A stretch of 63,394 bases of DNA, counting the filler, from Craspedostauros australis (taxonomy: Eukaryota), in NCBI GenBank assembly GCA_030167865.1. It is 8 parts of 8 records of this genome, joined end to end, with 100 filler letters (N's around TTAATTAATTAA, not from the genome) between each part and the next. Parts side by side here need not be neighbours in the genome. Positions count along the whole stretch, not along the records: positions 1 to 28,731 come from JALAGF010006435.1; 7 more parts are not named here. The stretch is one strand, 5' to 3'. Both the position numbers and the translations under genes were made by a program. The stretch's first letter is position 1; every line of letters begins with the position of its first letter. Below are positions 3,160 through 46,104 of the stretch, in pieces. The notes under the pieces are model-generated. The model was given only the letters and a program-made list of their open reading frames with translations. It was not told where the DNA came from and made no database searches.

Positions 3160-3285
3160 CAATACCAGAACCCCAAAAAACGAAACAAACGATAACACTA
3201 GATAAAGGAAAAAAGAAACACATCAACAAAATCAGTACTCAAACTACAGCAAATTCTACGTGACACGAAAGATACCGACACGACC

Positions 3286-5736
3286 ATGAAGGCAACCAAA
3301 CATGTTAGAATCGTAGACGACAAAGCCGACGACGTTGAGATGATGGATGAGCAAGGACCAGCTGTGCAGACAGCAGCTCCCAAGCCACCTCCCAAGCCAA
3401 ATCCGAAAGCAATCGAAGAAGAGGCGATGGAGAAACGAGGGGAAATAGCGACGACGTGGAAAGATCCGAACACCGCACGCTGGAAAAAGCTCCATGACAC
3501 CATCATTCAACAAGCCAAAGCCTTCCGGCCAGACGAGATGTACGGTGAAGAGGACAGAGCCCTGCACAACCAGACGAAGAAGACCCTGGTCATGAAAGCG
3601 AGGTGGGAGAAAAGCGACACGGCAATGGTGTCGGCGTACATCCCCACCATAAGCGAAATGACGGGGTTTTTCCAGACGGTGATGGATGGGCGCACAACCA
3701 AGTTGGGAAAAACAAAAGTGACTTCGGATGATCCGGCACGAGTGGCCATCAAGCAGCTCGTCGCGGATCTATCTCTCACCAATCCCATCCGGTGTTTTGC
3801 GGATGCCCTCAAGCCCGGCAACAAGACCATGGCGGCTAATCAGATGACCATTTTATGGGCAGCAGCAACAAACTACATGGGCTGCCAATACATGGATGAG
3901 CAAGCCCCGCCGGAGGTCGACTCCGAAAACGAGAAGATGAAGGTGGACAGTGATGACGAAAGCTATGATCTGGAAGTTCTCATGACGAAGAAACCACTGA
4001 AGCAAGCCAACCTAACCGCCTACACAACAGCAACACGAATCACATCACCAGCCCCGCGAGACGCAGCAGGCAACCTCAAAGCTGCACGAGCTCCAACAGC
4101 CGAAGAGAGCCAGCCAAACGGAGAGGACGATGACGACAAAGGCGAAGGTTGGACCATCCTGCAAAAGAAATCTGCCCCACAGATGTCCAGCCCCAAGCGA
4201 AGGTACTACGAGCGGTTCGAAATGCGATTGAAGATTTCCAAAGGCTCCAAAACGCCGGTCAGAGACTTTCAAGAACGCTTTCGATCGTGGTATGAAGATG
4301 CTCTGGATATGGACAAAAGTCTGATCATCAGCCCCTGGTACAAGAAAAACAAGGCCAAAGGCTGCATCGTCACCGCTGATGATATTCCCGCAGCATGGAA
4401 AGATCTCCGGTACTTCATTGGAAGAGCTAACCCAACGTCCAAGAGCGAGGATGTCTATCTCCAAGTGCTCCTGTCATCGAACATGGACATGCAAATGTTC
4501 ACGAGCTGGAATACGGAGCTCGAGGGAGCCTATCTGGAAGGTGAATACTCATACATTCAAGATCTCAAGGATGCAGAACACACGACGGAGATTGGATTCA
4601 TGGCGTACTCAGGCAACTTCACCAAACCCAAACAGGCCCTCAAGATCATCAATCAACTTCTGGAAGGAAAGCGAGCAAAACTTAAGGTCGGAGGAAGGGT
4701 GAAATACATGGGGAAAGTGTCAGAGGAAGTGAAGGAGCAACACCTTCAGCTAGGCGGCAGCTGGTACAACGCCCCATGGATGGCTCTACATCTTCATGCA
4801 GACGTCAAAGACGCACGAAGAGCCTCCAAAATCCTGGGCAAGATCTTCAACACGAAGGAAGGTGATCGAGGCGGACTCAACTACAGATATGTTCCAAAGC
4901 CCGGGACATCAGTGATGGGGGCAAAGACAGCTGCGAAGGTGCAGGCGATGACCCGAAAGCATCAAAGCTACGTCCGCCGGCTCAAGTACGAGCAGCTCAA
5001 GGGAGACTTCGCGTTGGATATGAAGGATCCAGAGACTCAGACAATTACTCTCCGGGAATTCCTGGCCAACCAAACCATTGAAGGGTGTCCGATGATCCAC
5101 GATGTCAGCACAACACACATGTCTGACGGGAAGGAAGACGCAATCCACATTGTCGCGTTCGAAGAGCGCTATGCACAAGCGGTAGGATTGCTTCACACCA
5201 TCGGGATCAGATGCTCCTCGGAGATCAACGAGTCCACCAACAAGTGGTTCTCTGAAGACATCGTCGCCATGAGCAGCAACATGATCAAAGACACAAATGG
5301 AGAATACGTGGACGTTGAGACCGAAGAAGAGATGGACTTTCTCTTGGACGAAGGATTCGGCAACGTGGTCATCGAAGGTATCAACATCATGGAGAGGGAC
5401 AACGAAGCGCCAAAGCGCAAGAAGGCGCGATTGGAAGACGAAAGCTTCAAAACCTTTGGAACGGAGTTTGGGAAGTCGATGGCATCGTCCAGATACACGA
5501 TCCCAGAGTCACAGACAGCAATAGATGAAAGAGAGGCAATCGAAGCAGAACTGGAAGAAGCTATGCGAATGGCCAGAGAGGCTCAAGAATTGGAGGCAAG
5601 TCGTGTTCGAGTGCAGGAACAAAAGAGCACGATAGCCAGCCAGGAATCAATCATCGCGGCCTTGCGCGCCCAACTAGCGGCGTCCGAAGTCCAGCCACCC
5701 GCTCCAAGCAAAGGCGGGGGCGAGGACCAAGAATAA
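3286..5736 (+). CDS. LINE ORF1 protein (816 aa) with C-terminal coiled coil
   Basis: Uninterrupted ORF directly upstream of ORF2. Its C-terminal part aligns by eye with ORF1 of copy 2 (FEE..AQA, KWFS.D, LL.E.F, I..LRA.L). Confidence 0.88.
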   Translation: MKATKHVRIVDDKADDVEMMDEQGPAVQTAAPKPPPKPNPKAIEEEAMEKRGEIATTWKDPNTARWKKLHDTIIQQAKAFRPDEMYGEEDRALHNQTKKTLVMKARWEKSDTAMVSAYIPTISEMTGFFQTVMDGRTTKLGKTKVTSDDPARVAIKQLVADLSLTNPIRCFADALKPGNKTMAANQMTILWAAATNYMGCQYMDEQAPPEVDSENEKMKVDSDDESYDLEVLMTKKPLKQANLTAYTTATRITSPAPRDAAGNLKAARAPTAEESQPNGEDDDDKGEGWTILQKKSAPQMSSPKRRYYERFEMRLKISKGSKTPVRDFQERFRSWYEDALDMDKSLIISPWYKKNKAKGCIVTADDIPAAWKDLRYFIGRANPTSKSEDVYLQVLLSSNMDMQMFTSWNTELEGAYLEGEYSYIQDLKDAEHTTEIGFMAYSGNFTKPKQALKIINQLLEGKRAKLKVGGRVKYMGKVSEEVKEQHLQLGGSWYNAPWMALHLHADVKDARRASKILGKIFNTKEGDRGGLNYRYVPKPGTSVMGAKTAAKVQAMTRKHQSYVRRLKYEQLKGDFALDMKDPETQTITLREFLANQTIEGCPMIHDVSTTHMSDGKEDAIHIVAFEERYAQAVGLLHTIGIRCSSEINESTNKWFSEDIVAMSSNMIKDTNGEYVDVETEEEMDFLLDEGFGNVVIEGINIMERDNEAPKRKKARLEDESFKTFGTEFGKSMASSRYTIPESQTAIDEREAIEAELEEAMRMAREAQELEASRVRVQEQKSTIASQESIIAALRAQLAASEVQPPAPSKGGGEDQE

Positions 5737-5854
5737 TGACAGGCTGGGGGCAGGCGAAGCATCGTCAACCACCCCCGCAAGCCAAACAGATGCAACCCCG
5801 GAGGAAAGGCGTCGGGAAGGGCCGGACCTCCTCGACAAGCACTGGGGAGACTCT

Positions 5855-8800
5855 ATGTTCACCAAAGGCGGCACTATGATACGAATAGCCGCCTTGAACG
5901 TGGGATGTCTCCAGGCTGAGTCGAAACATTGGAAGAATGATGACCTGTGGCAATGGGTCAAGCAGCAGAAGATAGATGTTGCTCTCCTCTCAGAAATAGG
6001 AGTCAATTGGTCCAAGATTGGTCGAATGAATTCGTGGAAGTCCAGGACCAAGAAGCACGTCTACACGGAACGGCATTCACTGTCATATAACGAGAGAGAA
6101 CAGATGGGCAGCCTGAGACAATGGGGCGGCACAGCTTGTACAATGATAGGGAACATCGCAGGAAGGTACAAAAGCAGGGCCAATGATCCGCGCAAGCTCG
6201 GCAGATGGGCAAGCATGGCGATCAGAGGTAAATGCGACACAACCATCAGGTTTGTCAGCGTGTACATTCCCAACAAAGGAGGTCTCAGCGCGGGAACGGT
6301 CCACAACCAGCAAGCCTCTTGGCTAGAGTCACAGGATATTCATACACCACCCATTTCGCAGCTCATCCAAGACCTCGAGACATCGATCCAACAGTGGAAG
6401 GAAGCAGGCGAAACGGTGATAGTAGGCGGCGATGTCAATATGCCGGTGAATCGCTCTCAGATGGCCAACATGATGGCGAGGCAACACATGAAGGAGGCGA
6501 TTCTCAGCAGGCATCCGACGGGCCCAGGCATATCCACCAACGTGCGGGCGAACACAGACAGAGTCATTGACGGCTTATGGGTGCCGGCGTCGCTGCAAGT
6601 GGTGCGATCAGGATACAGCGAATTTGGCCCCTGGGATCATCGCACAGCTTGGATAGAGGTAACCCAAGACTCGGTCTTCGGCACAACCAGTCGCCCCACC
6701 CGCAAGTTTGAAGGCAGAAGAGTGCGTCTGAACAGGCCCATCACGGTCCAGCGGTATCAGGCGGAAGTCAGAAAGCAATACAGGCGAGTAAACATGCAGC
6801 GAAGGGTCGAGAGTTTACAGGTGGAGGTCGCATCGTCGCAAGCGCTCACCCCGGGCCAAGCGGAACGAATGGAGTCCATCGACCGAGACCGCACGCACAT
6901 CATGCTGGCAGCAGAGAAGAAAGCCAGGACTATACACATGGGTAAGGTCCCATTCTCCCCAGAGGTCAAAAAGAGAGCCATGGAGAAGCAGTTTTGGAAT
7001 CTTGCGTGGAAGCGGCGAGGAGGCAAGAAAGTGAGCTCCCGTTGGTATGAAAGAGCGAAAAAACAGGCCGGTATCTCAACCCGCACAGCCACTCTCAGCA
7101 AAGAGGACCTGAATAGCAAGCGAAAGCGAGCGCATGAGAAATGGAAGAAAGCAAAAAAAGACGCACAGAAACATCGGGCCACTTTCCTGCAGCAGAGAGC
7201 AGATGAGGAAGCCAAGGCGGGCAACACATCCGCGGAATCCGCTCTAGTCTCTATACAGAAACGAGAAGAGATAGTGGAAACTTTTCGCGCCATACGGCAG
7301 GTGGTGGGGGACTACGATCCCAACAGCAAAGTGACAATGGTTATCGCCAACAACGAAAATGGCGAAGAGGAGGTGTACGACAAAGAGCAGGCAGTCATTA
7401 CCCAGTGTATGAAAGCCAACGAGTCCAAATACAGACAAGCGTACGTGACTCCGCTCCAACATCCCAGCTTCGCTCGAGACGTGCGGCGCATGGGCATACC
7501 ATCAGCCCAACACAAACATTGTCGCAAGCTCGGTCAACACGACAGTCGTTTGCTCGAAGAACTTGGCAAACCTGGCGCAGTACCATGGAAGGCAGAAGAT
7601 CTCCACATCACAACGTCCAGCCATCAACAGCTGTGGTCCAAGGCAAGGGAGAAGACTACGTCGGGCCCGTCCGGTCTCCATTTCGGGCTGTGGAAGGCAA
7701 ATGCCAAGTGCGATGATCTTGCAACGGTCGATGCAGCCATGCGGGAGGTGTCTCTGCGGACAGGATACAATCTGAGGCGGTGGCTGAGATGCACCGATGT
7801 CACCCTGCTGAAGGAACCAGGAAATTTTCGAGTCTCCAGGTTCCGTACCATCAGCCTGGTGGAAGGAGATTTCAACGCGAACCTCAAGTGGATTGGCAAA
7901 GTCATGATGAAACACGCGGAGACCCACCAGATGTTGCCGGAAGAACAGTACGGCAGCCGCAAGCAGCGAAGCGCAGCAGAAGTTAGTCTCAACAACAGAA
8001 TGACGGACGACATCATCAGGATTACGGCGGCCACCAGCTGCATATGCTCCAACGACGCAAAAAGCTGTTATGACCGGATGGCGCACACTCCTCTCGAGCT
8101 CAGCATGCGACGACTGGGAGTGCCCAAAGTCGTAGGGGAAAGCGTGACATCGGCAGTTCAAACCATGCAGCACCATGTGCTGACGGGCTTTGGGCGATCC
8201 ACGCGAACATATCCTCACCGAGGACCCAAATTGCAGGGACTGCTGCAAGGCTTGGGTATATCGCCGGCAGGTTGGGTGGCAATGAGTTCTCCAATCATGA
8301 CTGCCATGACAGAAAGTGGATTCGGATTCAAGTCCGTCAGCCCAACCAAGAAAGTCTCCACGAAGCTGGTATGTTTCTCGTTTGTGGACGACACGGACCT
8401 GATTCATTCGGTGCAGTCGGACGTCAGCGATCCCGAAGGATGCGTCACGGAGATTCAGCAGGTGGTAGACGCGTGGGAAGGCATGTTGCGTGCAACCGGA
8501 GGAGCCCTCGAACCTCGGAAAAGCTACTGGTACCTAATGTCATTCAAGTGGGAAGGTACCGGATGGCGATACAAGACGATCGAAGAGCATCCAGGCGACA
8601 TCAACATCCGTCAACCCGACAGCCAAGAACGATCCACGCTGCTAAGGCTCCGAGTTGATCAAGCCCGAAAAGCGCTTGGCGTCATGGTTAGGCACGACGG
8701 AGTGCAGCAGGACAACGAGAAGTATTATATGAGCAAAGCCGAACTATGGGCCGACAAGATGAGGAGAGGGCGCATGCTCCGCACTCATGCATGGATTGCC

Positions 8801-11383
8801 ATGAAATCGACAATATGGAAAGCACTCGAATATCCATTGACCAGTGCAACGTTTTCACGGGCAGCCACCGAACGCATCATGCGGCCAGTCCTTCAAGCAG
8901 CCCTGCCGGCAGCAGGGATACAACGCAACGTGTCCCGCAAGCTGGTATTCGGGCCAAGTGAAGGTCTGGGGTTTGGCGTGGAGCATCTGTATTATGTGCA
9001 AGTCACCAAACATCTTGAAGCCGTGGCGCGTCATTGGCAGAGGTCGACGTTGACAGGGAAGCTCATGCACACGCTGGTGGAGTTGCTGACAATCCAAGTT
9101 GGAGTTCCAGATGTGTTCCAAAGGGACCCAGCAAAGTGGGGACATCTGGCTGAAGACTCGTGGATGAAATCGTTGTGGACGGAGGCAAGCGGGGTGGGCA
9201 TCAAAGTGCAGTGGGAGAGCAGGATACTGCATGCCCCCAGACAACATGACGCGCCAATCATGGTGCGCGTCAGAGCCCTGGCACTCGGTTCGCAGCAAGA
9301 AAAGATCATCAACCTGTGTCGGATCGCCAAGAAAGTGTTCTGGATGTCAGATATAGTATCCGCGAGCGGCGATCACCTCCTACCATCGGCTGATCAGCCT
9401 GGCGACGTTCCATTGAGGGCCACGTGTCTCAACTGGCCCCCAGTGGGGACGTTGAGTGCAGCAAGCTGGAAAGCATGGAAGCAGGCCATCCGGAGGGTCT
9501 TCCCCGTGTCACGAACCGGCAACGTTCAGCTGGAGCAGCACCTTGGTCCATGGCGGGGGTTCACATCGCAGCAACCGCTGGTATTTTGGGATCCGAAGAG
9601 CGATCGACTGTGGGACAAGTCACAACCCTCTAAGGTGTTCGCTCGAGTACCTCGGCGCAGTCGGAGCAGGATATATGCAGAGATCGAAGGAGAAGTCTGT
9701 CAGTCAACAATGCTCGTGGATGGCTACCGAAGCTCGGGAAGGCTGGTAGTGACGGGCTCCGGCGACGGTATCGTCACAGCGCCCGAGTGTCCAGCCTCGG
9801 TGGAGGGAGCCATTCACGCAATGTCGCACACAAGGTCCTGGTCCGTCCAGCAGTATGAAATCGCGGGGTCCTGGAACACGGTGGCCCGGTCCATACGGCA
9901 GGGAACAGCGGTGGCGTGCAGCGATGGCTCGGCAGCCAACGGCACGGGAGCTTCAGGGGCAGTCATACTTGCGGATCACGGAGGCGAAACAGCCCAGTTG
10001 ATTATCGCGAATCTTGCCCCGGCCACCAGTGGGCTAATGCAATCGCACCGAGCGGAGCTCTCAGGGCTCTACGGAGTGTTGACGATGCTGGCAGCGATCT
10101 GCGCGGTCCATGATATCACTGAAGGAGGTGTTGAGATTGGTTGCGACAACGTTGGCGCTTTGAAGGCCTTGGACATGGAGTGGCGGTTATCGCCGTCTTC
10201 CACGGACGCCGATCTAATGCGGGCGGTCCGCAACAGCTGCAGCGAGCTACCTATCACGATTCTCGGACGCCATGTAAAAGGACATCAAGACAACCAGACA
10301 GAATGGAACAGATTGGATAGATGGGCCCAGTTGAACGTGGTGGCCGACAAGGTGGCAGGCGCGATGCGAACCTCTTCGCTCAACACGGCGAGTCACAGGG
10401 GTCACATATATGGGGAGCGAGTATCGTTCGTGGCGACGTCCAAGCTGGCGAACGTGACATACAAGGCGGTGGCTGGAGAGCGCACACAGCAGGAGGCAAT
10501 CGGCGTCCTGGCCTCTCGACGGGCGGTCGACGACGCGACGCAGGTGGCATGGCCAACCATAGGTCGCGTGCTCCAACAGATCGGCCAGCCAAAGAGAGTG
10601 CTAGTCACCAAGTTGATTACCGGTGAGGCTCCTCTGGGCAAGCGCATGAAGCGCTGGGGAATGCGATTGTCAGGTCAATGTCCCGGATGCCCCGCAAGTG
10701 AAGACACCAAGCATTTCTGGGAGTGTCCCAGCGACGGCAGGCGTGGCGTGGCTCATCGTTTGCTGAAGGACATCCGCAAATGGCTGCAACGGTACCCGAC
10801 CCACCCAGCAGTGGCGACAAGCATTTCAGTTATCCTCCGCAGTCAGTACGACAACTCCGCCTATCTACAAATAGCCAGCCCGGGCAGCAAGCTCCATGAG
10901 GCCATACAGCATCAGCTCGCAGTGGGACATCAGGCGCTCCGGAAGGGGCTGCTGGTCACACACTGGGAGAGCATGCAGGAGGAATTCTTAAGGCAGCAGC
11001 AGTCACGACGGTCGGCGGCGAAGTGGGCAAGGCAACTGGTGCGGCGTATATGGCACATCGCGTGGGAGCAATGGGCGGTGCGCAACGATGAACTTTTTCA
11101 CAGTCAAGACTCGGCCGAGGCCGAAATGATCCAAGCTCTGGAAAATCGAGCGGCATCACTTCGGCTTCGCCTCGAGGCAGATCCGGCAACCAACCGACGC
11201 ATTTTGATGTCCCAGCCGAAGGAAGGAGCTACCACAGCACAGGTCGCGGTATGGGTGGAGCAAGCCGCCATGATACTGCGTGAACCGGCCGCCTCTGGCG
11301 CCCTGCTCACGTGGCTGCGTTATCGACGGCAAGCTCATCCAAACCCCGGCTATGGACCCGGAGGCTCTACGGAGAGTGGGTAG
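5855..11383 (+). CDS. LINE ORF2: AP endonuclease + reverse transcriptase + RNase H + CCHC knuckle (>=1842 aa; true start probably upstream)
   Basis: APE motifs IAALNV, LLSEIG, GGDVN, IDGLW, DHR. RT motifs QYGSR, NDAKSCYDR, QGLLQG, FVDD (8381-8392). RNase H motifs ACSDGS, RAEL, GCDN, HVKGHQD, NVVADKVA. Knuckle CPGC..EDTKHFWEC (~10679-10726). Confidence 0.95.
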   Translation: MFTKGGTMIRIAALNVGCLQAESKHWKNDDLWQWVKQQKIDVALLSEIGVNWSKIGRMNSWKSRTKKHVYTERHSLSYNEREQMGSLRQWGGTACTMIGNIAGRYKSRANDPRKLGRWASMAIRGKCDTTIRFVSVYIPNKGGLSAGTVHNQQASWLESQDIHTPPISQLIQDLETSIQQWKEAGETVIVGGDVNMPVNRSQMANMMARQHMKEAILSRHPTGPGISTNVRANTDRVIDGLWVPASLQVVRSGYSEFGPWDHRTAWIEVTQDSVFGTTSRPTRKFEGRRVRLNRPITVQRYQAEVRKQYRRVNMQRRVESLQVEVASSQALTPGQAERMESIDRDRTHIMLAAEKKARTIHMGKVPFSPEVKKRAMEKQFWNLAWKRRGGKKVSSRWYERAKKQAGISTRTATLSKEDLNSKRKRAHEKWKKAKKDAQKHRATFLQQRADEEAKAGNTSAESALVSIQKREEIVETFRAIRQVVGDYDPNSKVTMVIANNENGEEEVYDKEQAVITQCMKANESKYRQAYVTPLQHPSFARDVRRMGIPSAQHKHCRKLGQHDSRLLEELGKPGAVPWKAEDLHITTSSHQQLWSKAREKTTSGPSGLHFGLWKANAKCDDLATVDAAMREVSLRTGYNLRRWLRCTDVTLLKEPGNFRVSRFRTISLVEGDFNANLKWIGKVMMKHAETHQMLPEEQYGSRKQRSAAEVSLNNRMTDDIIRITAATSCICSNDAKSCYDRMAHTPLELSMRRLGVPKVVGESVTSAVQTMQHHVLTGFGRSTRTYPHRGPKLQGLLQGLGISPAGWVAMSSPIMTAMTESGFGFKSVSPTKKVSTKLVCFSFVDDTDLIHSVQSDVSDPEGCVTEIQQVVDAWEGMLRATGGALEPRKSYWYLMSFKWEGTGWRYKTIEEHPGDINIRQPDSQERSTLLRLRVDQARKALGVMVRHDGVQQDNEKYYMSKAELWADKMRRGRMLRTHAWIAMKSTIWKALEYPLTSATFSRAATERIMRPVLQAALPAAGIQRNVSRKLVFGPSEGLGFGVEHLYYVQVTKHLEAVARHWQRSTLTGKLMHTLVELLTIQVGVPDVFQRDPAKWGHLAEDSWMKSLWTEASGVGIKVQWESRILHAPRQHDAPIMVRVRALALGSQQEKIINLCRIAKKVFWMSDIVSASGDHLLPSADQPGDVPLRATCLNWPPVGTLSAASWKAWKQAIRRVFPVSRTGNVQLEQHLGPWRGFTSQQPLVFWDPKSDRLWDKSQPSKVFARVPRRSRSRIYAEIEGEVCQSTMLVDGYRSSGRLVVTGSGDGIVTAPECPASVEGAIHAMSHTRSWSVQQYEIAGSWNTVARSIRQGTAVACSDGSAANGTGASGAVILADHGGETAQLIIANLAPATSGLMQSHRAELSGLYGVLTMLAAICAVHDITEGGVEIGCDNVGALKALDMEWRLSPSSTDADLMRAVRNSCSELPITILGRHVKGHQDNQTEWNRLDRWAQLNVVADKVAGAMRTSSLNTASHRGHIYGERVSFVATSKLANVTYKAVAGERTQQEAIGVLASRRAVDDATQVAWPTIGRVLQQIGQPKRVLVTKLITGEAPLGKRMKRWGMRLSGQCPGCPASEDTKHFWECPSDGRRGVAHRLLKDIRKWLQRYPTHPAVATSISVILRSQYDNSAYLQIASPGSKLHEAIQHQLAVGHQALRKGLLVTHWESMQEEFLRQQQSRRSAAKWARQLVRRIWHIAWEQWAVRNDELFHSQDSAEAEMIQALENRAASLRLRLEADPATNRRILMSQPKEGATTAQVAVWVEQAAMILREPAASGALLTWLRYRRQAHPNPGYGPGGSTESG

Positions 11384-11410
11384 TGGCGACTATATTTTGC
11401 ATGAAACAAT

Positions 11411-11521
11411 ACACAGATTCCGTGCTCCCTTCGCGCCCTGCGCGAAGTTGAAAGGAGGCGGAGAAAAGCGCCACCGGCGCAGCCTCATAAGAGGGTTTAA
11501 TCCTTGTGTTATTTATTTATT
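11411..11521 (+). other. Conserved structured 3'-terminal RNA element and (ATTT)n tail of the LINE
   Basis: Hairpins at 11429-11447, 11468-11480 and 11483-11494 enclosed by ACACA/GATT...AATC/TGTGT. Homologous structures at 42101-42200, 52494-52610 and 56134-56212 (minus strand). Confidence 0.75.
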
Positions 11522-12013
11522 TACAAGGCATTGAAAATCCACCAGAGGCATGGTGTTGCTTCTTGGCAGCCCCGCTGTTTTGTGGAAAACCTGCGTCCAA
11601 CCCACCATTTCTCTCAATACCTCTAAAGCCAAGTTCATTGCCACTGGCAACAATGGCAAGATGGTGCTCTGGTTTCAGTCCATCCTGGACGAGATCAGCA
11701 TGCGCCAACAGCATGTCATACTTATCTACAAGGACCACAGAGGCGCCAGAATGATGGCAAACGCCAACCAACCGCCAAGGAACTCTAGGCATATCGATAT
11801 ACACACATTTGCGGTCTGCGATTGGGTGGGCAGATATCTCATCCTCATTGCTGATGTGTCATCCAACCCCAATGTTTCTGATCTGTGCAACAAGAAGATG
11901 CTTGTGATTATGTTCTTTGACATACGGATCTACTCATGGGATCCATTCCATCATTCTACGTTCGCCAGTGAATGCCGCCAGTGGAGTGCGGTGATCCCAG
12001 TCTTCTCTGTATG
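11522..12013 (+). mobile_element. Decayed Ty1/copia pol relic, right part (RNase H)
   Basis: Removing the LINE restores YVDADWGANTRH*KSTRGMVLLLGSPAVLWK...WFQSILDEI...SRHIDIH...NVSDL, the Ty1/copia RNase H motif series. Confidence 0.88.
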
Positions 12014-12110: not shown

Positions 12111-14765
12111 ACACAACAAACATCATCACAACCCTGTAGCCACGAATCCATCATCAGCACGAAATCATACACACCACACACGCGATACTGACAAATTCAG
12201 ACAGCAATTGGACAACACCATGCATTTTGTCAGTAGAAACCAAAAAAATATGAAAATAGCACGATAATTACACGATTCGGGAAATGGATGAGTGCTGCAA
12301 TCAGTCAGAAATCGCGTTTTCAAAGCGCAACCACAACGACAACACAAAAAATGTGCTTCGAAACGTAAAAAACGGAAAAGGAAAATTCACAACACGACCA
12401 ACGTGACGTGTCGGACAAACCCTTCGGAAGCCCGAAGGCGTCATTAGTTAACAACAACAATGGCATTGCATGAACCGACCATCATGATTGGCTGGTTGGT
12501 TCGTGGCGTTATGTCAAAGTTCTTATTTGGTGGGAACGCAATGATGTCTGCGACAGGTCACGAAGATACCGATGTCCACAACACGAGGGGAGTTCTCATG
12601 TTTCCTTTCAAACAAATATCGATTACGTGCTTGTGAACACAAATAAAATGTCAAATAGAAAATCGATGTTTCGTGATTTTGTCATTGCGTCGTTCTTTGC
12701 ATGTTGCACAGTGCTCTATTTCGTCTGTGGAACTGGAGGACGGTTTGGACTTACCGAACAGAGAGTGACGTCACACCAAGAATTAACCTTCCAACCATTC
12801 GGACATGTTAAAGCACACGAACCAACTCTTGCACAGTGTTTCAATGATGGAAATGTGGAGGCACGGCGCCGGACAAGCAGTCTAAATGTGGAGATGCTGT
12901 CCTCTGTTTTTATGGTACGGTTTAAATGGTACCTACATACATTGGTACATCAACTATTGATGGTACTCCGATGGGTACCGAAGGCCAACAAGGATGCGTC
13001 AGACCAGGGTGGGAGGCGACTGGGAAATTGGTCTCCCGCAGCTCCCAAAGTCGGCCACCACGACACGGTGTCGAACCGATGATAAAATAGATAAGTGGAA
13101 ATCATTTCGGAACAGAGGAATATAATATGATAGGCTAGCCCGAGTTTTGCGTGGTACAAGCCGACTCGAGATACCAGAATCTCCGAAAGAATAGTATCGT
13201 TTCACCATGGAGTGTGCCACTCCTATTATTATACTCTCTACCATGTGAAAATGCATCCGTCAATACGAGTAATCGCCCACCATGACCTCTCTTGTGATGT
13301 TGAGTCATCCAAGAGAGAGCGAGAGAGAGAGAGGGGATCACTCATGCGTACGTCGAAGAGCTCGAGAGTCTGAATCGCCTGCGACTACGCCGTACCAGGA
13401 CTGTTAGTGATGTGAGTGTTCATCAACTTCTTTGCCATCTATTGTGTACTTCATTCATTGGCTTGTATTGAATTATATCTGCCATTGTCTGCTCCTCATG
13501 TCCGCATCGGCATGATATGGAATTGCACGTCCCAGTGTCTTCCTCAACTTCATCCTGCATCGCATGTGCAACGACCGCTGGCTCCAAAGGAAGCAATCTC
13601 TTCAGTGTTGCGAATGATCTTAGAGCCACACAATGTTGCACTTGCTTCGTGATGAATCGTTGGCGAGCACCGGCCAAAGTCATCATTGGCAGGAATCGTA
13701 TGATCAGCACAGTACGGGTGCAGACAGGACAAGACAGAACAGGAATAGCCGTATTCAGCGATAATAATCGTTTGTAGGACAGCCAGGTTTACCATGCTTA
13801 ATGCTGATGTCGAAGCTCAACTCATCTCTTTTCTTCTACATATACTATTGTATTCCAGAGAATTTCTCTCTATACAGAGAAGTTAGATTGAGGTCGGCAG
13901 TTGAGGACACGTTTTGGGGGGACGTCACCCCCTTTCAGCCGGAACGAATGAAAGTGTTCAGTTGGGACAGACTAGCTCCGGGACTGACTCGGGACCTGAC
14001 TGTCCATTCCGCGTACGCAGTATTCGGTACCCAAGACCGATACTGTGATGAAAGGCTACCACACACACGATGTGTAGTTGAACTGCAATCCATGCGTTGC
14101 TCGCCCTCCAGCTCATGCACCCCTGCCACCTGTCCATCTCGTCACTCTGTTGAACATGCATCTATCTTGAAGCATATCCATGTGAATGGATCAGCTGCTG
14201 CTCTATGCGTGACGATACTGGAAGACTGTATGTGTGCAGGATCACCACGGCATGCTGCTGCGCAACAAAGAACGGCTACAGTACGACAGCACGAACCCCA
14301 CCTTTTTACTCGATCGTCCTATCAATAGTAAGCTTAACACATAAATCAAGCAATCAGAAACAATCTTCACAGCTTACTTCCGAGTCCACTACAGTTACAT
14401 CATCGTCTGATACAGCTTTGTCCTCAACATCAAACGGCGTCAAAACCGGTTGAAGGACAGACTATCCTCCTGACAACGTGCGAAAGACACGGAGTACCAA
14501 CTCGTTCGTTTCCACGAATCATGCCGAAAAAGGCGAAGATCTTTGCGTTTCCTTGTTCACCATGAAGAACCATCGCGAACAAAATCCAGGAACAACACAA
14601 CAACACAAGCACAAACACACAATCGAGGAAGGCGAAACCCAACGGCGGCTCGCGATACCCAAGAGAGAACGACAGAGAGAGAGACTTCATTCTTCAACGA
14701 GGCCTCCGCTTTCCATCACTCCCACTCCCAACATTTTCACCAACACCAACACCAACATCGTGACC

Positions 14766-15893
14766 ATGCCACCGCCCAAGAACCCCGGATACGAATCGCC
14801 CAAGGGCACCGTCGCCCTCGTCACCGGCTCGTCCGGATTCGTGGGGTCGCGGTTGGTGGAGATGCTGCTGGAGCGCGGAAGCAGCACGGTCATCGCCTTC
14901 GACATCGCCGCGCCAACGTCGACGCTGCAGCAACGCTTCGCCGATGTGCAGGCCAAGACCGGTGGCAAGATCATCGTGCTGAGCCAGTCGGAGGGCGATC
15001 TGACCAACGCCGCCGCGGTCGAGGCCGCCTTCAAGAAGGTGCCCAAGATCGACATCGTCTACCACATCGGAGCCTTGGTGGGTCCGTTCCATGACAAGGA
15101 GCTCTACTACAAGGTCAACGTTGGCGGCACGCAGACCATCATCGCCAACTGCCGCAAGTTCAAGGTGCCCAAGCTCGTCAACTCCTCCAGCCCGTCCACG
15201 AGGTTCCGCGGCGGCGACGTCGAAGGCCTGCGCGAGGATCAGATGCCCATTCCGGAAACATTCGTGGCGCTCTACGCCGAAACCAAGGCCAAGGCCGAGC
15301 AGCTCGTCCACAAGGCATGCTGCGACGAGATGCTCACCAACAGCGTCGCGCCGCATCAGGTTTACGGACCCCACGATTCCCTCTTCCTGCCCAAGCTGCT
15401 GGAGACCGCCGGGACGGGCCGTCTCCGCATCTTCGCAGAAGGCAAGAATCGCATCAGCCTCTGCTACGTCGATAACTACTGCCACGGTCTCATGTGCGGC
15501 GCCGATGCTCTCTACAAGGGATCGCCGGCCCTGGCCAAGTACTACGTCGTGCACGACGGACCGCCGCAGTACTTCTGGAAGATCCTCGACCAGGCCTTCA
15601 TCGCCATGGGCTTTGTCAGTTTGGAGTCCAAATTCCATCTGCCGGGCTGGCTGCTCTACGGCGTCGCCTACTTCTGCTCGTTCTTGACCATGCTCACGGG
15701 AAAGAAGTTCAAGCTCACGCCGTTCACCGTCAAGATGATGACCATCCATCGGTACTTCAGTTTGGAGAATTCCACGAAGGATCTGCTGTACAAACCACTC
15801 AAGACCTTCGACGAAGCATGGCCGGAGACGATAGAATGGTTCAAGATCAACTGGCTCCCCAAGTGGAAGAAGCAAGGCAGCCAGGATTTGTGA
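14766..15893 (+). CDS. 3-beta-hydroxysteroid dehydrogenase/decarboxylase family extended SDR (NSDHL/ERG26-like), 375 aa
   Basis: Rossmann motif VTGSSGFVG, catalytic YAETK, PHQVYGPHD, YVDNYCHG and a C-terminal hydrophobic stretch. Strong GC3 codon bias begins at ATG 14766. Intronless. Confidence 0.88.
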   Translation: MPPPKNPGYESPKGTVALVTGSSGFVGSRLVEMLLERGSSTVIAFDIAAPTSTLQQRFADVQAKTGGKIIVLSQSEGDLTNAAAVEAAFKKVPKIDIVYHIGALVGPFHDKELYYKVNVGGTQTIIANCRKFKVPKLVNSSSPSTRFRGGDVEGLREDQMPIPETFVALYAETKAKAEQLVHKACCDEMLTNSVAPHQVYGPHDSLFLPKLLETAGTGRLRIFAEGKNRISLCYVDNYCHGLMCGADALYKGSPALAKYYVVHDGPPQYFWKILDQAFIAMGFVSLESKFHLPGWLLYGVAYFCSFLTMLTGKKFKLTPFTVKMMTIHRYFSLENSTKDLLYKPLKTFDEAWPETIEWFKINWLPKWKKQGSQDL

Positions 15894-16302: not shown

Positions 16303-19300
16303 TCAAACGTTGAAGAGATCGTTGGCCGTGAACAGTGTGCTCGAATCAAAGCTGTCGCGGTTGGGAAGGACGGTATCGAGTGCTTCACTCGAATCCACAC
16401 CCATCCATTCCGCGATGGCATTCCATGGGCTCTCGTATGGCAACGTGGGGATCAATCGACCGCGGCCAATGTTCTACGGTCCCTCTGCTGTGAGATCATC
16501 TGGGTATCGTCCATGAATGACACCACCCTTGATGCTGCCGCCCATCATGAAGCCGTTGCTGGCCCACCCGTGGTCGGTACCCCCGCGCGAGTTGGGGGTC
16601 AACGTGCGTCCGAAGTCAGAGCCTGTCATGATCACGACATCATTCCATGCATTCTGCCGCTTCATTTCGGCCACGAACGATTGAGGGCGTCGTTCACCTC
16701 GGCAAGCTTGGTGTTGATGTTGTTGGTAGTGGTCACGGCGTGATGATCGTATCCACCATGCTCAACAAAGATGACTTCGCGCTCGACATCTCTGTCACCA
16801 CGTGACTTGATCCATTTGGCGATTGATTTAAACGCATCATTCAATCGTCCTTCCTTGAAGCCGTCGACTTGGTAGTCGTCGTAGATATCCTTCATGAACC
16901 GCGTGTCGTTGATGCCCTTCACAAGCTCGGCAGACCAGATATCGGCGAAGAGACTGCTGCCTGGTTGGCCGACGCTGTTCATGGACCTTAGCAATCCGTC
17001 CATCTCCTCTACTTCAGGCATCCGGTTGAACGTGTCCGGGTTCGTGCGGGGTAGCTGCGTCACTGGATTGCCGTCCTTGGGCGAGCCCGTCACTGCACGG
17101 GCGTTGCCACCAATCATATTCGCCGAAGTTCTGTATCCAAGGCCCTTCAACACATCGAGCATGCGCCCACCGACGCCAGACTCGCTGAGCTCCTTTTCGA
17201 TATCAAGCCGTTGCACAGCTTTCTGTTGGATGTTATGGGCAAACAGCGTTGTTCGTGTGTTAAGCTTCCAATCCTCCTTGGTTACAGGCTCATCCAGCAC
17301 GCCGATGTTGGCGAAAAACATGGCATCGTCCCTGTTGTACAGCGTCCGTCCATATGAGAAAGCCTTGTTGATACCGAAGCGGCCGCATGGTTGGTTCTCG
17401 GTAGCGATGGGCAATAGATGTGACTTTGGAAGCGCGAGCGGGCCACGGATATTGCTGTACTGTGCATACAACTTGGTGGATCCACATTGATCTCTGGGAA
17501 CCAGCATGCTGAAGGAGTCCATTCCGCCCTGGAACATGAGGTACACGACTGCCTTGTACGTATCGGTCTTCCGAGGGATAGGTGGCCCCGAAACTCGTGG
17601 TTCTCCGGCCAGTCGCACAATGTTGGTGGAATGGAATTCTGGCGAACTGAAGATGAGTTGCTGGGCAAGCCGAACCGCCTTGTTCATGTCGTTGTCAATG
17701 AATGGGATGATCGCGTCGATAATGCGTTGGCGGTTCAAGGGTTGCAAGCGGTTTGCTGTCAACAACAGCGAGAGCTCGTTCACCAAGTCCTCGGCGGAAT
17801 TTGCCGTAGAATTGAACTGCAAGTATCCCAGAGATCTGGAAGTATCGCCAATGTTGCCAGGAGGTTGGCACCGCGACAAGCCGCCTGGCTTGGCGTCGCC
17901 AAACCCGCTGTGGCATTGTGCTGGCATCATGCCTGTAAGCGCAGTGTGATACCATAGAAATAGAAGCAAGACGACGCGACAGCGTGAGTTGGTTGCAAAG
18001 CACGAAAGAGCAGGCGGCAACAACAGCAACAGAATTGCATCCTACTCCAACGCCACATGCAGTACGTGCCACAACTTACCCCATTTTGTTGTCCCGAACA
18101 ACCCATTCAACATCCCGATCACGGTCATCGTCGAAAGAACCTGAGCCTCCGGGGAATACAACGATGCCGCAGAAATCCCTCCAGATGGCGTGAAATCCGA
18201 AAGGAAAAAGGAAAACACGCTCGGGGCTTGGTATGCCCCCTCGCCGATCTTGCCATCCATGCCTGCTAGGAAGGGCCACACCATCGGGCTATCGTTCTTG
18301 TACTCCATCGCACGCAGCACGGCAACCACCTTGAGGAGTGGTTCGCGTAGCTGACCGTAAGATGGGTCCGCGTCAAGCACAAATGACAGCGACTCTGCAT
18401 CCAGTAGAATGGCCGCGATCATGGCACCGAGGTCGCCGTACTTGCCGGACCCAAAGCCTTGGTATTTCCCGGTCTTGTAGGAACTCGCAACAGTCTTTAC
18501 AAAGCGCGGTGAAGGGTTGGAGAAACCAAACCGTTGCAGCATTCGGACTGCCAAGAAAGGTGCGTGACTTGGGTGGTGGAAGTAATGATCCAAAGTGGCG
18601 TCTGTTTCGTGGTAAGCGTCCCGGGCCTCAGGGTTAGCGAAGCTCATGAAGTGGACTGGGTTGCGGAAGGAGAAGTTGCTCATTCCAACGGTGACGGTGG
18701 ATTGGACATTCTTCAGGAACAGAGCTGCGCCGTTGCCATCAACAACGCGAAAGATTGTCTCCTCATCAAAATTAGCGCAATTGCTGGATCTCGCTCTCGT
18801 AAACACTGCAACTCCTTTTAGCAACCCTCGGCAACGCCCTCGGTGTTTGTACTCGCCTGCAGGGAAGGACCGTGGATCTGGGGCTCCGACCAAGAGATTG
18901 GTGAGAACTCCGGTTGGAGAGGCACGAGGATCGTTTGCGGAGCTGAAGAAGACCTCGTTGCTTGTGCTGGTTTCGCAGATGCACGACGATCCTATCGGCG
19001 TGCATGGATCGTTTGCTCCGTCACAATTAGACGATGCCCTCGGGAACTCCCCATCCTTCCACGATACCTTGAAGAAATTCAGAGTGTCTGGTCCAAGCCC
19101 TGGAAGGATCTTCTGATTGCCTTCCATATCGGCGTCTGAGGGGAGTGATTGCAAGGCAACCGTTGTATTGATCAGATGGCAAACACAAAAGAACGCGTTT
19201 GAAATTGAATTTGAGTGTTGTTTGGCAGGAGCAGCACAAAGTGTGAGAGCAGGAGTTGCGCGCGCCCATCATCATCAATTTCGTTTCATGTTCAACACAG

Positions 19301-22300
19301 TATGAGTATGAAACGGTGTCTTCACTGCAACTCGCAGCATTGCCAACGCGACCTCCACTGTCAGCAGCAGCAGCAGCAGTCGCAATACTAGAAGTAGGCG
19401 CGTGTTCTCGCATTTCCTCATCTTTTCGCTCACCTGGATCATGGACAATCGCAACTCTGCCTTCGCGGTCGATCTTGACTTTGATGGCGCAGCCTCCAGC
19501 TGTCCATCGGTACGACAGCGGGAGCCGGTCGCTCATAGTGCTGATGTCTTTGGCACAAATACCAGCAGTTCTTGCCTGGACGACGGCGATATCGCATTGG
19601 ACCTTCCCGGCAACAGCACACCTCTTTTGTGCTGTTGCATACTTCACTCTCTCAGCCTGGTAGGCGCAGCTCATGGTAGCCCGCGGGACTCGTCCCGAAT
19701 CTATCTCAACTTGATCACAACAGCTTGTCTGAGCAACCTCGGTCAGAGGGTTGGCACACAGCATGTTCCTTGCTCCTCCTCTGGCGTTCGAGAAGTCCAG
19801 CACGCGCTTGGCGTTGTTGTAGAATGCGTACTCAACGCAGGCTGGTCGGATGTATTCATAGTATATTGGTGTGGGTGACGAATCAACTCTGATCGTTCGA
19901 ATGGTATCGACATCGAGTTCGTCGCTGCCTTCCTGGCCAGAATAGTCCAAATTGTCCTGCAGCACCACCTTGCCTGGATAACTGCAGCCGTTGCCATCGG
20001 CTTGATCCGCGCAGAGCTTGGCATACAGTGGACTGGAACTATCCAGGCTGAGGCGGAGGACTTCTGGGTCGTTCTCCCATGATGGCAGATCCTTCTGGAG
20101 TTCGGGTGTGGCCTTCGACCCCAACAGGCGGTACACTGCGCCCTTCCGGAGGAAATGTTTGGATGGTAAGTCAGCACAAAGCGGGTACCGGTCACCAATG
20201 AAACCTGCGTACAGGTTGGACTTGGGGAAGATGTCTCGCCAGCGACTGAAGGTGGGCACAGCAAGGAAATGTATTGATGGACGAGTATGGAGGGGATAAG
20301 GTCCACGAGAGGAATTGGAAGATGGATAGTAAAGGGAAATCCGGGTGAGTTGCTTGATGCAGCGATCATCGCACAACATTCACGAACGTAAGAAACAACC
20401 CGAAAGTTGAGCTCAGCATCTTGACTTACGCGTTGATCGTCATAGGATCGACTCTATCCCCACCATTCTCGTAGTTGCCGCGCGATTGCTGGCGTCTCAT
20501 ACCTGTCCATGCTCTTGAGAACGACGTGATGTCATCATTGTCGTATGTATGGATCGGTTCACCGTGGGAATCGACTTTGACAGTCCCATCCATGTTCAAC
20601 TGGTACAACCCAATGGAAAAGAGCTGCATGATCTCGCGTGCGAAGTTCTCATCAGGATGGGAAGTTTGGTCGAAATCCTGAGCGAACTGGTAGCTTGTTG
20701 ATGCTATCGATGACAGCATCTCCCCCATTCGGTCATGGAAGGAAATCCTTTTGAGGATATCGCGGTAGTTACCAAAGGCATTGCGAACGAAGATGTCGTA
20801 GTAGTCCAGATTGTTCTCGGTGCTCTCGGTTTCGCCAAGAAGCTGAGGGCTCACCACCAAAATCTGACTCAACGCAAAGGCGACCCTTTGTCGCAGTTGA
20901 TCGAGGCTGTTCAGTGCAATTTGTGCCCAGATTGTCTGTCGTTGAAGGCGGTAGATTCCAATCGGAACTGGATTCTCAGGGAAGCGATCCTCATCGAAAG
21001 ATTCGACGAAGAATCCAGAACCCAGTGATGGGTCGTTCGCGACTTCGCCGATAGAACCGCAAACGACGACGCCGTTGCCATTTGGATTGATAGGGACGGA
21101 TCCAAACTCCTTGCGGATCTCATCGGTCTGGAGACGCTCGGGGAGCCCCGCAAATGAGACCACGTCGCCCAACCTGCCAAGAAATGGATACTTTTTGGCT
21201 TCGTTCGCAACTCTTGTGAAGAATCTGAAATTCCCTTCGTAGTGATGATTGTCGGGGAACCTGAGTTTTGCCAAGCCGTTCTCGGCCCACTTTCTGATGT
21301 TGTAGGAGCCGCCGGGGTGTGCGCCAACCCATTCCGTGAGATCGTAGACATTCAGGTGCAAGCTGTGAACATGCTGCCAGCATTGGCCGTCCAGTCCCTT
21401 GATGTAGCCAAGCGAGATCTTGTTTTCATCGGCTTCGTCGCAAGTTTGACTTTCGAATAGACTGACGTCCTTCAGAAGCGTCGGTTCCTCCAGATTGCCA
21501 TCAAATCCTGGCTGGAGCAAGGTAGCGAAAGCGGCTTCTGTTTGATCGCCGACATGACGGTAGTCATTGCTTGCGCAGAGGTTGCTTTCGACGCGCATCC
21601 AACGTGACTTTCGATTCTTGAATCTAGTGCACGGTGGGGGCTGATAGAGCACGTCGTCTCCGTTTTGGTTCTTGCGAGTTTCGTTGTTCAGGGGGAGATT
21701 ATCGATGGCGTAGACCTGAGCATGTTCATGGTGGTAATTTGTGATTTGAATACTATGATGACGACAATGATGACCGATGATGACCGATTACCAATGAGTC
21801 GGTGTCAAAATAGATGGGGATGTCGCATGCAGGTGAGGGATTGACAAACAGACGAACGCAGAGAAGGACGAGCAGCACAGTGTTTCGAGCCCATTCAGTT
21901 TGGGCGTATGGACAGAGGGGACGATGCGCGTTGTTGGTAGCCTCCGCACACACATACACACGAATGCCACTGGTCGCTTTCAGATGCAACAACTTACGTA
22001 TCGTTCTTCGATTCTGTACACGCTCGTCACGAAGTCTTCAGTGAGCTTGAGAGAAAAGACAGGCGGCTCGTCGGCTCTGCAGGCTGTCGAAGCAGTGCTC
22101 AACACGCAGTGGTCTTCGTTGATAAAGGACCGTGGGACGTTGGGGCATTTGACCTTGTTGTCAGAAGAGAATGCGACGACACCACCTCCGTCTGGAAGAG
22201 GATTCTCGACCGTGTTCTCTAGTAAGATCAGATGAGGATCAAAGAGAAGGTACTCGACCATGCCGTCTTTACTGCTCCTACCAAACACGGTTGGGGTAAT

Positions 22301-28787: not shown

Positions 28788-28831
28788 NNNNNNNNNNNNN
28801 NNNNNNNNNNNNNNNNNNNNNNNNNNNNNNN

Positions 28832-30476
28832 CGGCATAGCAGAGCGAAGCATCCGCACCATCGTGTCGATGGCCCGAACAATGATGATGCACCAAAGTAT
28901 TCATTGGCCTGACATATTTGATGCACAGCTATGGCCTATGGCAGTGGTACACGCAGCTTACATTTACAATTGTGTGCCCAATCCAGCAACAGGACTAACT
29001 CCATACGATGTTCTTTCTCGTGTCCGACTTCCACTCAAACAGCTCCACAATTTACATGTATGGGGCAGCCCTGTGTATGTGCTCAACAAAGCACTCGCAG
29101 ATGGACGCAAGATACCTCGATGGGAACCAAGAGGAGAGCGATACGTCAACGTGGGTCTCTCTACAAAGCATGCTTCGACAGTGCCCTTGGTGCTCTCACC
29201 ACGAACAGGATCCATCACACCTCAATTCCATGTGGTGTTCGACGATTGGTTTGCTACTATAGCAACCGATCCCAAACACTTGCCGAACTACCAATCAGAA
29301 GAGTGGACACGTATGTTTGGTGATACAACCTTTCAGTATCCATTTGATGACGACGATGTAGAGGCTATGGAACAGGAAGAAACCCTCAACTCCGACCTCA
29401 TAGACCATAATCGATTGAAGCGAAACGATGCGATCGAACCAAACNTTCCAACTTCGCCTCACATCCCCTCTCCATCCGCTGACAATCAAGGCGCAGAGGC
29501 ACCATCGCTGCCTGCTCCAAAGCAGAAACCAATGATGCAAACGGACTCAAGCTTCACTAATAATGACTTCGCCCCTCCAATGTCAACTTCAGAGGGAGTG
29601 AATCAACCACTGTCGTCGACAGAGGGAGACTTCANNNNNNNNNNNNNNNNNNNNNNNNNNNNNNNNNNNNNNNNNNNNNNNNNNNNNNNNNNNNNNNNNN
29701 NNNNNNNNNNNNNNNNNNNNNNNNNNNNNNNNNNNNNNNNNNNNNNNNNNNNNNNNNNNNNNNNNNNNNNNNNNNNNNNNNNNNNNNNNNNNNNNNNNNN
29801 NNNNNNNNNNNNNNNNNNNNNNNNNNNNNNNNNNNNNNNAACATCAAATGTACCAGAGACCACGACCTCATCACCAATTCCACCAGCGTCCACGATTACG
29901 CCCAAACGAGAACGAAGCACCAGAATTCGCAAAGAACCACAGCGGTTCACCTATGGACGCCTCGGAGGCAAGGCAGCATGGCTTGAAGACGACGATAGTG
30001 ATGAGTACCTCCTCTGTGTTGCGACGGCTGCTGAAGAAGAAATTGAATCAGACGACGCCACATCTGACATACATCCAGATTCGTATCCAATTCACGTATT
30101 CTCACGAGCTGTCATCGATTGTCTGAACACAATTGAGTTTCTGCAACGAAACGGCAGTGACCCTCGCTCTATCTACCTCCACGATTTCAAGGTCAATTCA
30201 CTATACCTACTGCGCCAACTCCGCCAACGCTACCGAACTCTCAACCCACAAGCTTCAGTCAACGACTTGCCAAGAATGGAGCCTGAGGAGTTTCAAGCGA
30301 ACATGGTCGATTGGTGGCAACCGGAACCAGCAGACATGACGGAGGACGCCCCGTTCAACGTATCAGATCTATACGAAGACTTCTTCTTGGATATGGAGCT
30401 CCACATCATGGAGGATCGCGAGTGCGAATTCCTCTTCGAGGAACAACAGAACGAAGTGACAGTCTACGCTGTGCGC
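28832..30476 (+). mobile_element. Ty1/copia (CoDi-like) pol fragment: integrase C-terminal half and linker
   Basis: GIAERSIRTIVSMARTMM..LWPMAVVHAAYIYN..KIPRWEPR..GSITPQFHVVFDDWFAT, then RSTRIRKEPQRF. Open frame across an internal gap. Confidence 0.9.
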
Positions 30477-30520
30477 NNNNNNNNNNNNNNNNNNNNNNNN
30501 NNNNNNNNNNNNNNNNNNNN

Positions 30521-30532
30521 TTAATTAATTAA
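30521..30532. other. Artificial contig-join linker
   Basis: TTAATTAATTAA within an N run. Confidence 0.97.
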
Positions 30533-42208: not shown

Positions 42209-42587
42209 TCATGCACGAGGATCTGAAGCTTCAAGGAACATGACAGACGACGTAGGATGATGGAGGGAGTTGCAATTTTNGGNGCGAGGTTGGTGATGGC
42301 NCCATTTGTTGATTGGTATCTTTCATCGAGTCNCCAGTCACGGATTANTGACNACTCCATCGACTCNNACAACTTTGCCGNATGCGTTCACAAAATACGA
42401 TCGGGCACTGTGCCATGCATGGACGTGGTCGATCGGGACGGCTCGTACTCGCATATGCCCGATGATAGTGCCGATACGCATCAAAGTATTGCTTGCGTTT
42501 TGTTGCTGTAGACTGGCTCAGATCAGCCTACATTGGTGCATCCNNNNNNNNNNNNNNNNNNNNNNNNNNNNNNNNNNNNNNNNNNNN

Positions 42588-42599
42588 TTAATTAATTAA
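42588..42599. other. Artificial contig-join linker
   Basis: TTAATTAATTAA within an N run. Confidence 0.97.
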
Positions 42600-42643
42600 N
42601 NNNNNNNNNNNNNNNNNNNNNNNNNNNNNNNNNNNNNNNNNNN

Positions 42644-46048: not shown

Positions 46049-46092
46049 NNNNNNNNNNNNNNNNNNNNNNNNNNNNNNNNNNNNNNNNNNNN

Positions 46093-46104
46093 TTAATTAA
46101 TTAA
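46093..46104. other. Artificial contig-join linker
   Basis: TTAATTAATTAA within an N run. Confidence 0.97.

Follow-up and report, generated by a model that had tools for sequence, protein, structure and literature searches.

What is the end of about 100 bases that several LINEs have in common here, and what could it do for them? The window (the whole stretch of 63,394 nucleotides that was analysed, to which positions refer unless another locus is named) holds four LINE copies with one common 3' module, placed in all four behind APE and RT ORFs. An earlier sequence-only reading had indeed proposed four elements with a common 3' end of about 100 nt, and the module was found in each of them. Copy 1, apparently full length, spans nt 3160–11520 (+), as delimited by its ORFs and by a target-site duplication at both ends; its stop-to-stop frames are ORF1 (nt 3202–5736, +; 844 aa), for which no Pfam or PDB match was found, and ORF2 (nt 5678–11383, +), with Pfam Exo_endo_phos and RVT_1 matches. 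ORF and domain matches also placed the ORF2 of copy 2 at nt 46505–52441 (+), with the APE part (nt 46505–47668) and the RT part (nt 47669–52441) in different frames, and that of copy 3, in several broken frames, at nt 56257–61435 (−). Copy 4 is a decayed, 5'-truncated LINE copy, with its 3' module at nt 42103–42199 (+) according to the covariance model (CM) match.

Between the convergent 3' ends of LINE copies 2 and 3 sits a Copia-type fragment (nt 52600–56081, +) with Pol_BBD, integrase core and SH3_retrovirus matches, and a further SH3_retrovirus frame was seen at nt 28788–30524. Three long frames (716, 302 and 381 aa) at nt 42596–46096 (−), on an A-rich strand, gave no Pfam match; they were rejected as a LINE ORF1, having no similarity to ORF1, and may belong to another element. 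Probable host genes are represented by a 3-beta-HSD/NAD-dependent epimerase family frame (nt 14454–15893, +) and by frames matching DUF1800, DUF1501 (weakly) and cytochrome b5 (nt 16662–21787, −). Runs of N and scattered single N are present at nt 56050–56133 and 42280–42370, and the run cutting the copy 3 module contains an isolated ttaattaattaa.

In copy 1 the module opens with a long hairpin, P2 (nt 11419–11462, +), supported by MFE folds, CM alignment and family covariation. Its base pairs UCCGU-G-CUCC with GGAG-GCGGA, and its apex is the structure that the sequence-only reading had called hairpin A (CTTCGCGC-cct-GCGCGAAG, nt 11429–11447). There follow a linker GAAAA (nt 11463–11467, +), whose last two A are 98–100% conserved among 41 distinct elements, and the short GC-rich hairpin P3 (GCGCC-acc-GGCGC, nt 11468–11480, +; the former hairpin B), which rests on the family pairing. 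The variable hairpin P4 (CCUC-auaa-GAGG, nt 11481–11498, +; the former hairpin C) is taken from the MFE fold and shows mismatches in the CM register. Column conservation then defines a single-stranded, nearly invariant end, AAUCCUUGUGUUA (nt 11499–11511, +; family form AAUCNNUGNGUUA), which runs into a tail of TTTA repeats (nt 11512–11520, +), reported by Tandem Repeats Finder with period 4 and 3.8 copies over nt 11509–11523.

Every hairpin sequence that the earlier reading quoted for copies 1, 2 and 3 stands where it had put it. The copy 2 module (nt 52519–52610, +; CM R2) comprises, in the CM layout, P2 (nt 52523–52564), the linker (nt 52565–52570), P3 (nt 52571–52583), P4 (nt 52584–52597) and the single-stranded end AGUCCUUGUGUUA (nt 52598–52610), all on the plus strand. 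Its three hairpins are CTGCATG-acg-CATGTAG (nt 52533–52549), GCGCC-ttc-GGCGC and ATAGT-aata-ACTAT, and its own MFE structure gives another register for P2. The copy 3 module (nt 56079–56207, −; CM 12.6 bits) is readable from nt 56207 down to 56134, the remainder being N: hairpin A is present as CCTCGCGC-cag-GCGCGAGG, and the N run interrupts the sequence after ...GCCTCAT. In copy 4 the module tail is TTTATTTG, and decay is visible within the module itself as stems with G-U pairs, mismatches and broken pairs. The CM scored copy 2 at 44.1 bits (E 3.6e-5; 3.7e-6 on the window alone), copy 1 at 39.8 bits and copy 4 at 19.1 bits (E 0.1); with the final model and filters off, the four copies were the top four matches in the window, the next reaching at most 11.2 bits. 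Compared with dinucleotide shuffles, fold stability corresponded to z = −4.1 for copy 1 (111 nt) and z = −2.8 for copy 2 (131 nt).

The module has been kept far better than its surroundings. Between copies 1 and 3 identity is 72% for the ORF2 protein (731 aa compared), 61–64% for the ORF2 DNA and 41% for the UTR between stop and module, whereas 74 of the 78 comparable bases of the module are identical. The four differences consist of both sides of one apical-stem pair (U-A to C-G) and two loop bases, so this 78-base comparison confirms the compensatory T:A to C:G change that had been read in hairpin A. This points to selection on the module within the window, where copies 1 and 3 preserve it far better than the ORF and the rest of the UTR. 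The decayed copy 4 still matches copy 1 at 86 of 101 bases. Copies 1 and 2, with ORF2 proteins only 32% identical, have an identical 22-nt core in the module and the same last 10 nt: the terminus CCTTGTGTTA, at nt 11502–11511 and nt 52601–52610 respectively, is common to both as had been noticed before, and the tails differ, copy 1 carrying TTTA repeats and copy 2 none.

The position of the module relative to the element boundary is given by a 15-nt exact repeat, TACAAGGCATTGAAA, found as the 5' target-site duplication copy of LINE copy 1 at nt 3145–3159 (+) and again as the 3' copy at nt 11521–11535 (+). No longer word is common to the first 3.4 kb of the window and the 65 nt across the end of copy 1 with its tail; the two bases TA after the tail are assignable either to the tail or to the duplication. 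Since the duplication directly follows the tail, copy 1 can be taken as an apparently full-length insertion of about 8.4 kb. Target-site duplications were also looked for in copies 2 and 4, and none was found.

To look beyond the window, a search with the RT region of ORF2 was performed, which retrieved 369 relatives at E ≤ 0.001 among 7,999 scored candidates, the best being 47% identical; the best 120 of the 369 are nearly all unnamed or annotated as 'hypothetical protein'. DNA loci were fetched by means of a 16-sequence ORF2 alignment, and 425 of 598 candidate metagenome stretches encode a relative. The best 80 of these 425 loci (26–49% identity; L-numbers below) were kept, a selection made through ORF2 and so covering ORF2-bearing elements; for 55 of the 80, chosen from the match table, the match extends to the ORF2 C-terminus. 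Most C-terminus loci with enough downstream DNA end in AATC(N2-3)TG(N)GTTA, as judged by eye and with a loose pattern, and these ends are preceded by one long and two small hairpins. A first covariance model, R1, was built on a hand-structured seed of six ends of equal geometry with 15 pairs (4 in the P2 base, 4 in P3 and 7 in P4) and gave 28 matches at E ≤ 1, in sense strand only. Model R2, built from the R1 matches, was run on both strands of 627,611 nt and gave 46 matches at E ≤ 1 (CM E-values are rough owing to a short calibration), all of them in sense strand and all at LINE 3' ends. They comprise 43 of the 55 C-terminus loci, both intact copies of the window and one site where contig L002 begins.

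Of the 12 matchless loci, six (L001, L007, L011, L042, L056 and L075) have at most 131 nt past the stop; relatives in the subfamily of L017 and L018 have the module some 1.35 kb after the stop, where these two contigs have already ended; L055 stops within the module and L019 seems to stop just upstream of it. L026 and L079 gave no R2 match at E ≤ 1, although each has roughly 600 nt downstream. Among the matches the distance from the ORF2 stop to the module ranges from 8 nt to about 1.36 kb, a variability indicating that the element's end, rather than the ORF, is what anchors the module.

The tails point to the same boundary. In most matches the module is followed by 1–7 copies of TTA, TTTA, TA or ATTA, with few lacking a repeat, and in copy 2 no A/T repeat lies behind GUUA. 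Near-identical elements in separate contigs (L050/L052, L043/L044, L049/L067, L033/L035, L038/L039, L008/L009/L010 and L020/L021/L022) differ in repeat number and have unrelated flanks straight behind GUUA plus repeat. Together with the duplication around copy 1, these differing flanks fix the element boundary at module plus tail.

These relatives also bear on the proposal that the common end is unselected, reflecting either chance similarity or a recent 3'-end swap between LINE families by template switching. Considering the window alone, the identical 22-nt core and last 10 nt of copies 1 and 2 could resemble a recent exchange; however, the module recurs at 43 further loci whose ORF2 is 26–49% identical to the query, with many compensatory variants, and the exact 22-nt core gave no match when three collections, of viral, genome and metagenome contigs, were scanned for it. 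The absence of the exact core from these collections indicates that relatives have the fold and short motifs in common and not a recent copy, and we find an unselected origin hardly credible.

Other features were observed in the 3' UTRs of these loci. One subfamily carries a 233-aa ORF between the ORF2 stop and the 3' module (L021:7223-7924; also in L017, L018, L020 and L022). Identity is 74–97% between close relatives and, with the more distant L069:7407-8003, 33% over 201 aa (E 2e-30); this is possibly a third ORF of these LINEs. Two to five extra GCGCC-NNN-GGCGC hairpins, with the P3 sequence type of the window copies, occur upstream of the module in L019:6319-6604, L033:6632-6665 and L035:4521-4554. 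A long A run lies right behind the ORF2 stop, far upstream of the module, in L001 (8127-8180), L027, L049 and L067.

Across the family the module, of about 100 bases, has the order P2 - UAAA - P3 - A - P4 - AAUCNNUGNGUUA - (UUA/UUUA/UA/AUUA)n. P2 is a hairpin of 35–60 nt (87 nt for L064 in the MFE fold) with the base consensus 5'-(G)UCGU-U-C...G-GCGA(C)-3', in which a U is bulged; of the inner P2 pairs, C-G is invariant (36/36), the next is U-G or U-A in 30 of 36, and the one after covaries (27/36). The upper part is free in sequence, yet it forms a hairpin in 36 of 36 folds. In the 3' part of the linker, UAAA, the A are 92–100% conserved. P3 consists of 3–5 GC-rich pairs closing a loop of 3–5 nt and is separated by a single A from P4, which has an A-U closing pair, often within UAG...CUA, and a variable top. 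The end, AAUC-NN-UG-N-GUUA, is 88–100% conserved at 10 of its 13 positions in the 41 distinct elements (AAUC 98–100%, UG and G 100%, UU 97–100%, A 88%).

The sequence-only reading had staked its case on covariation in a larger alignment, and in the 41 distinct rows covariation is present in all three helices, P2, P3 and P4, far beyond chance once the relatives are added. In an alignment that was fitted to the model structure and hence favours pairing, 92.2% of cells are paired; shuffling gives 64.2% (sd 1.4), with none of 500 shuffles reaching the observed value, and sliding the 3' partners by 1–3 columns lowers pairing to 27–37%. Fourteen of the 15 pairs vary on both sides, a count equalled by 11 of 500 shuffles, and the covariation score was 0.573 versus 0.162. 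A single position may show as many as five pair types (columns 120/186: CG 15, GC 10, AU 7, UA 3, GU 2). P3 has 97.5% of cells paired, with 4/4 modelled pairs varying on both sides, and the P4 family helix 89.8%, with 6/7. The first-round alignment gave the same picture, and in APC-corrected mutual information eight modelled pairs were within the top 10, the top three included. Held-out matches moreover brought P3 variants new to the six-sequence seed, namely GUCU/AGAC, CCC/GGG, GCCUA/UAGGC, GCGCC/GGCGC and GCACC/GGUGC.

Folding without any alignment recovered 132 of 162 P3 pairs, 167 of 226 P4 pairs and 98 of 160 P2-base pairs in the MFE folds. Stability across the family is unremarkable (mean z −1.4; z below −2 in 10 of 41), and RNAalifold on a plain MAFFT alignment of 29 ends returned no pairs, which we attribute to variable loop lengths shifting the 3' strands of the helices out of register. 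G-U pairs are common (for instance U-G in 19 of 36 cells at columns 9/59) and antisense matches are absent, both pointing to the sense-strand RNA.

On one point the data part from the sequence-only reading, which had the module enclosed by a closing helix P1, ACACA/GATT..AATC/TGTGT, and thus drawn together into a multi-way junction. In its fullest form this proposal is a closed four-way junction, maybe tRNA-like or catalytic, with ACACA/GAUU upstream of P2 paired to the terminal AAUC/UGUGU. The complementary bases are present in copies 1, 2 and 3 (upstream strand ACACAGAUU), the helix is drawn in the MFE folds of copies 1 and 2, and two relatives pair a CACA, directly 5' of P2 in L073 and 38 nt upstream in L038, with UGUG in their own MFE folds. 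However, random upstream windows pair just as well: across 32 elements the last 13 nt form a duplex with the 40 nt upstream of P2 of mean −3.9 kcal/mol, against −4.9 kcal/mol for background windows taken from the same locus, and the background windows pairing at least as well as the upstream strand amount to 73% for copy 1 and 20% for copy 2. None of the tail columns appears among the 30 best mutual-information pairs, the helix is missing in relatives, and AAUC..UG.GUUA is nearly invariant even in elements without any complementary 5' strand. P1 was therefore rejected as a family feature on the basis of duplex energies and of the lack of tail-column covariation, and with it the multi-way junction loses its support, although the window's own sub-lineage may yet form the helix.

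As for a tRNA-like or catalytic fold, ARAGORN found no gene, and hence no tRNA-like cloverleaf, in the window. Rfam covariance models at gathering score gave no match in the window and in five loci; at E ≤ 10 only unrelated families appeared, with E > 1 and far under their cut-offs. Ribozyme families in Rfam likewise stay at E = 1 or worse, and there is no sign of catalysis, which had been proposed as a possible function. The Rfam result agrees with the earlier reading, which had not recognised the structure as a described RNA family. Overall we judge the closed junction very improbable. Of the architecture first proposed, the covarying multi-hairpin RNA at the extreme 3' end stands and the closing helix with its junction falls, and the module is better described as a row of three hairpins joined by conserved single-stranded linkers than as a closed junction.

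Known systems offer several comparisons. In stringent-type LINEs retrotransposition depends on a 3' stem-loop, and such stems show compensatory changes (PMC3747384). The L2-clade members, eel UnaL2 and zebrafish ZfL2-1/2, have at the 3' extremity of their RNA, like the elements here, a conserved stem that is interrupted by a bulge or an internal loop (PMC3747384, PMC4176376, PMC1636434) and behind it a short tandem repeat thought to support slippage; for UnaL2 these are TGTAA repeats linked to template slippage, while the I element ends in TAA repeats (PMC3747384). Their stem-loop is recognised by the cognate ORF2 protein, and in zebrafish L2 it is bound by the part of ORF2 that separates the endonuclease from the RT domain (PMC4176376); for the module described here we infer such recognition. 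UnaL2/ZfL2 have a single hairpin and a TGTAA-type repeat, whereas here there are three hairpins, a 13-nt invariant strand and TTA, TTTA, TA or ATTA repeats. Moreover, compared with the L2-type hairpin, the present module is conserved across ORF2 proteins about 30% identical.

Other elements are similar in part. The 3' UTR of R2 elements conserves its secondary structure while the sequence drifts, and R2 elements have a restriction-like endonuclease, rDNA insertion and a larger 3' fold. The elements here differ from them in having an APE endonuclease and a repeat tail, and in the case of copy 1 a 15-bp duplication in non-rDNA sequence. The multi-helix fold of the R2 3' UTR is recognised by the R2 RT to start target-primed reverse transcription (ref. 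81 in PMC3747384). Monocot L1 (LINE1-1_ZM) carries a 3' hairpin of roughly 50 nt, common to LINEs and SINEs, in which the stem shows compensatory mutations and some bases of the loop and 3' flank are conserved (PMC3747384); it is a single hairpin with a poly(A) end, and both host and LINE clade differ from those considered here. The Drosophila I factor, like the present elements, ends in a short A/U trinucleotide repeat, which in I is needed for precise initiation of reverse transcription (ref. 88 in PMC3747384). The I factor repeat is (UAA)n, and the repeats here are UUA, UUUA, UA or AUUA; in the literature covered, which was partial, we found no description of a multi-hairpin 3' module for the I factor, nor any of a 3'-terminal RNA structure in diatom or stramenopile LINEs. 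The I factor has the domain order APE-RT-RNase H, which the elements here may have as well.

Pfam searches of 16 ORF2 sequences gave weak matches to RVT_1 (11/16), Exo_endo_phos (9/16) and zf-RVT (3/16). No RNase H match was found in these 16 sequences at E ≤ 0.01; one relative has a precomputed PF00075 match, and some are named 'ribonuclease HI' by their source, the other cluster names being 'hypothetical protein'. Two bacterial assignments among the ORF2 clusters were taken as mis-binned. PDB searches by sequence and by profile returned no LINE RT relative of ORF2 and hence no hint of the clade; judging from sequence, ORF2 here appears very distant from the LINE RTs in PDB. An Atlas lead makes a diatom the probable host.

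What, then, might the module do? Its place is the very 3' end of an autonomous LINE, with the tail and then the target-site duplication coming directly after; its stems are kept by compensatory changes across diverged elements; and a short tandem repeat comes next, with a copy number that varies between insertions (copy 2 has none). Because position, covariation, invariant single strand, sense-strand G-U pairs and repeat tail fit the stringent class, we read the module as a binding and initiation site for the ORF2 protein: it is probably the cis-acting 3'-terminal recognition and initiation element of a stringent-type LINE, serving target-primed reverse transcription. Among the roles suggested earlier, template recognition would fit best, given the position, the covariation, the invariant single strand and the repeat tail. 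The ORF2 protein would bind the fold and the invariant single-stranded bases, thus choosing its own RNA; its endonuclease would then nick the target, and the reverse transcriptase would begin cDNA on the terminal U/A repeat, whose number could be set by slippage or microhomology, the repeat being made or reset at initiation. ORF2p binding, a need for the module in retrotransposition and slippage are steps that we infer.

A bolder version makes the module a retrotransposition tag complete in itself, which would dictate its tail as well, with AAUCNNUGNGUUA used as a telomerase-style template. P3 and P4 would then act as the boundary holding AAUCNNUGNGUUA, and ORF2p would repeatedly copy its last 2–4 bases (UUA, UUUA or UA) onto the nicked target. 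We regard this as doubtful; if true, a stretch of about 100 nt would suffice for the mobilisation of any RNA in these protists, and there should be retrogenes and partner SINEs that carry the module.

The module might instead serve mainly RNA metabolism, namely exonuclease protection of a non-polyadenylated end, 3'-end definition, export or translation. Its place at the extreme 3' end, the lack of poly(A) behind it in most elements and the compact set of terminal hairpins all accord with such a role, and binding of a host factor fits the data as well as binding of the element's own protein. Against it, the invariant single-stranded 13-nt end and the variable repeat suit RT initiation better than a passive cap, and the terminal bases are unpaired, so that the very end has no helix to protect it. 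We consider a role mainly in RNA metabolism quite unlikely; it and RT recognition are not exclusive.

Recognition and initiation by the element's own enzyme is thus the reading we retain: as the module is common to a large LINE group in environmental DNA, it is most likely the tag by which the LINE's own reverse transcriptase picks its RNA. The kind of element is already known; this member is itself absent from Rfam and reaches well beyond the window. It leaves the general picture of stringent-type LINE function unchanged and adds to a known principle a well-supported, deeply conserved case, a candidate RNA-protein recognition module in a LINE group that is large and has been little studied. 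For experiments the module offers clear targets in the stem base with its bulged U, in the two small hairpins and in the 13 unpaired bases of the invariant end. The covariance model marks true 3' ends of these elements in protist genomes and metagenomes and might detect non-autonomous partners as well. Should the tag suffice for mobilisation, diatom genetics might gain a tool from it.
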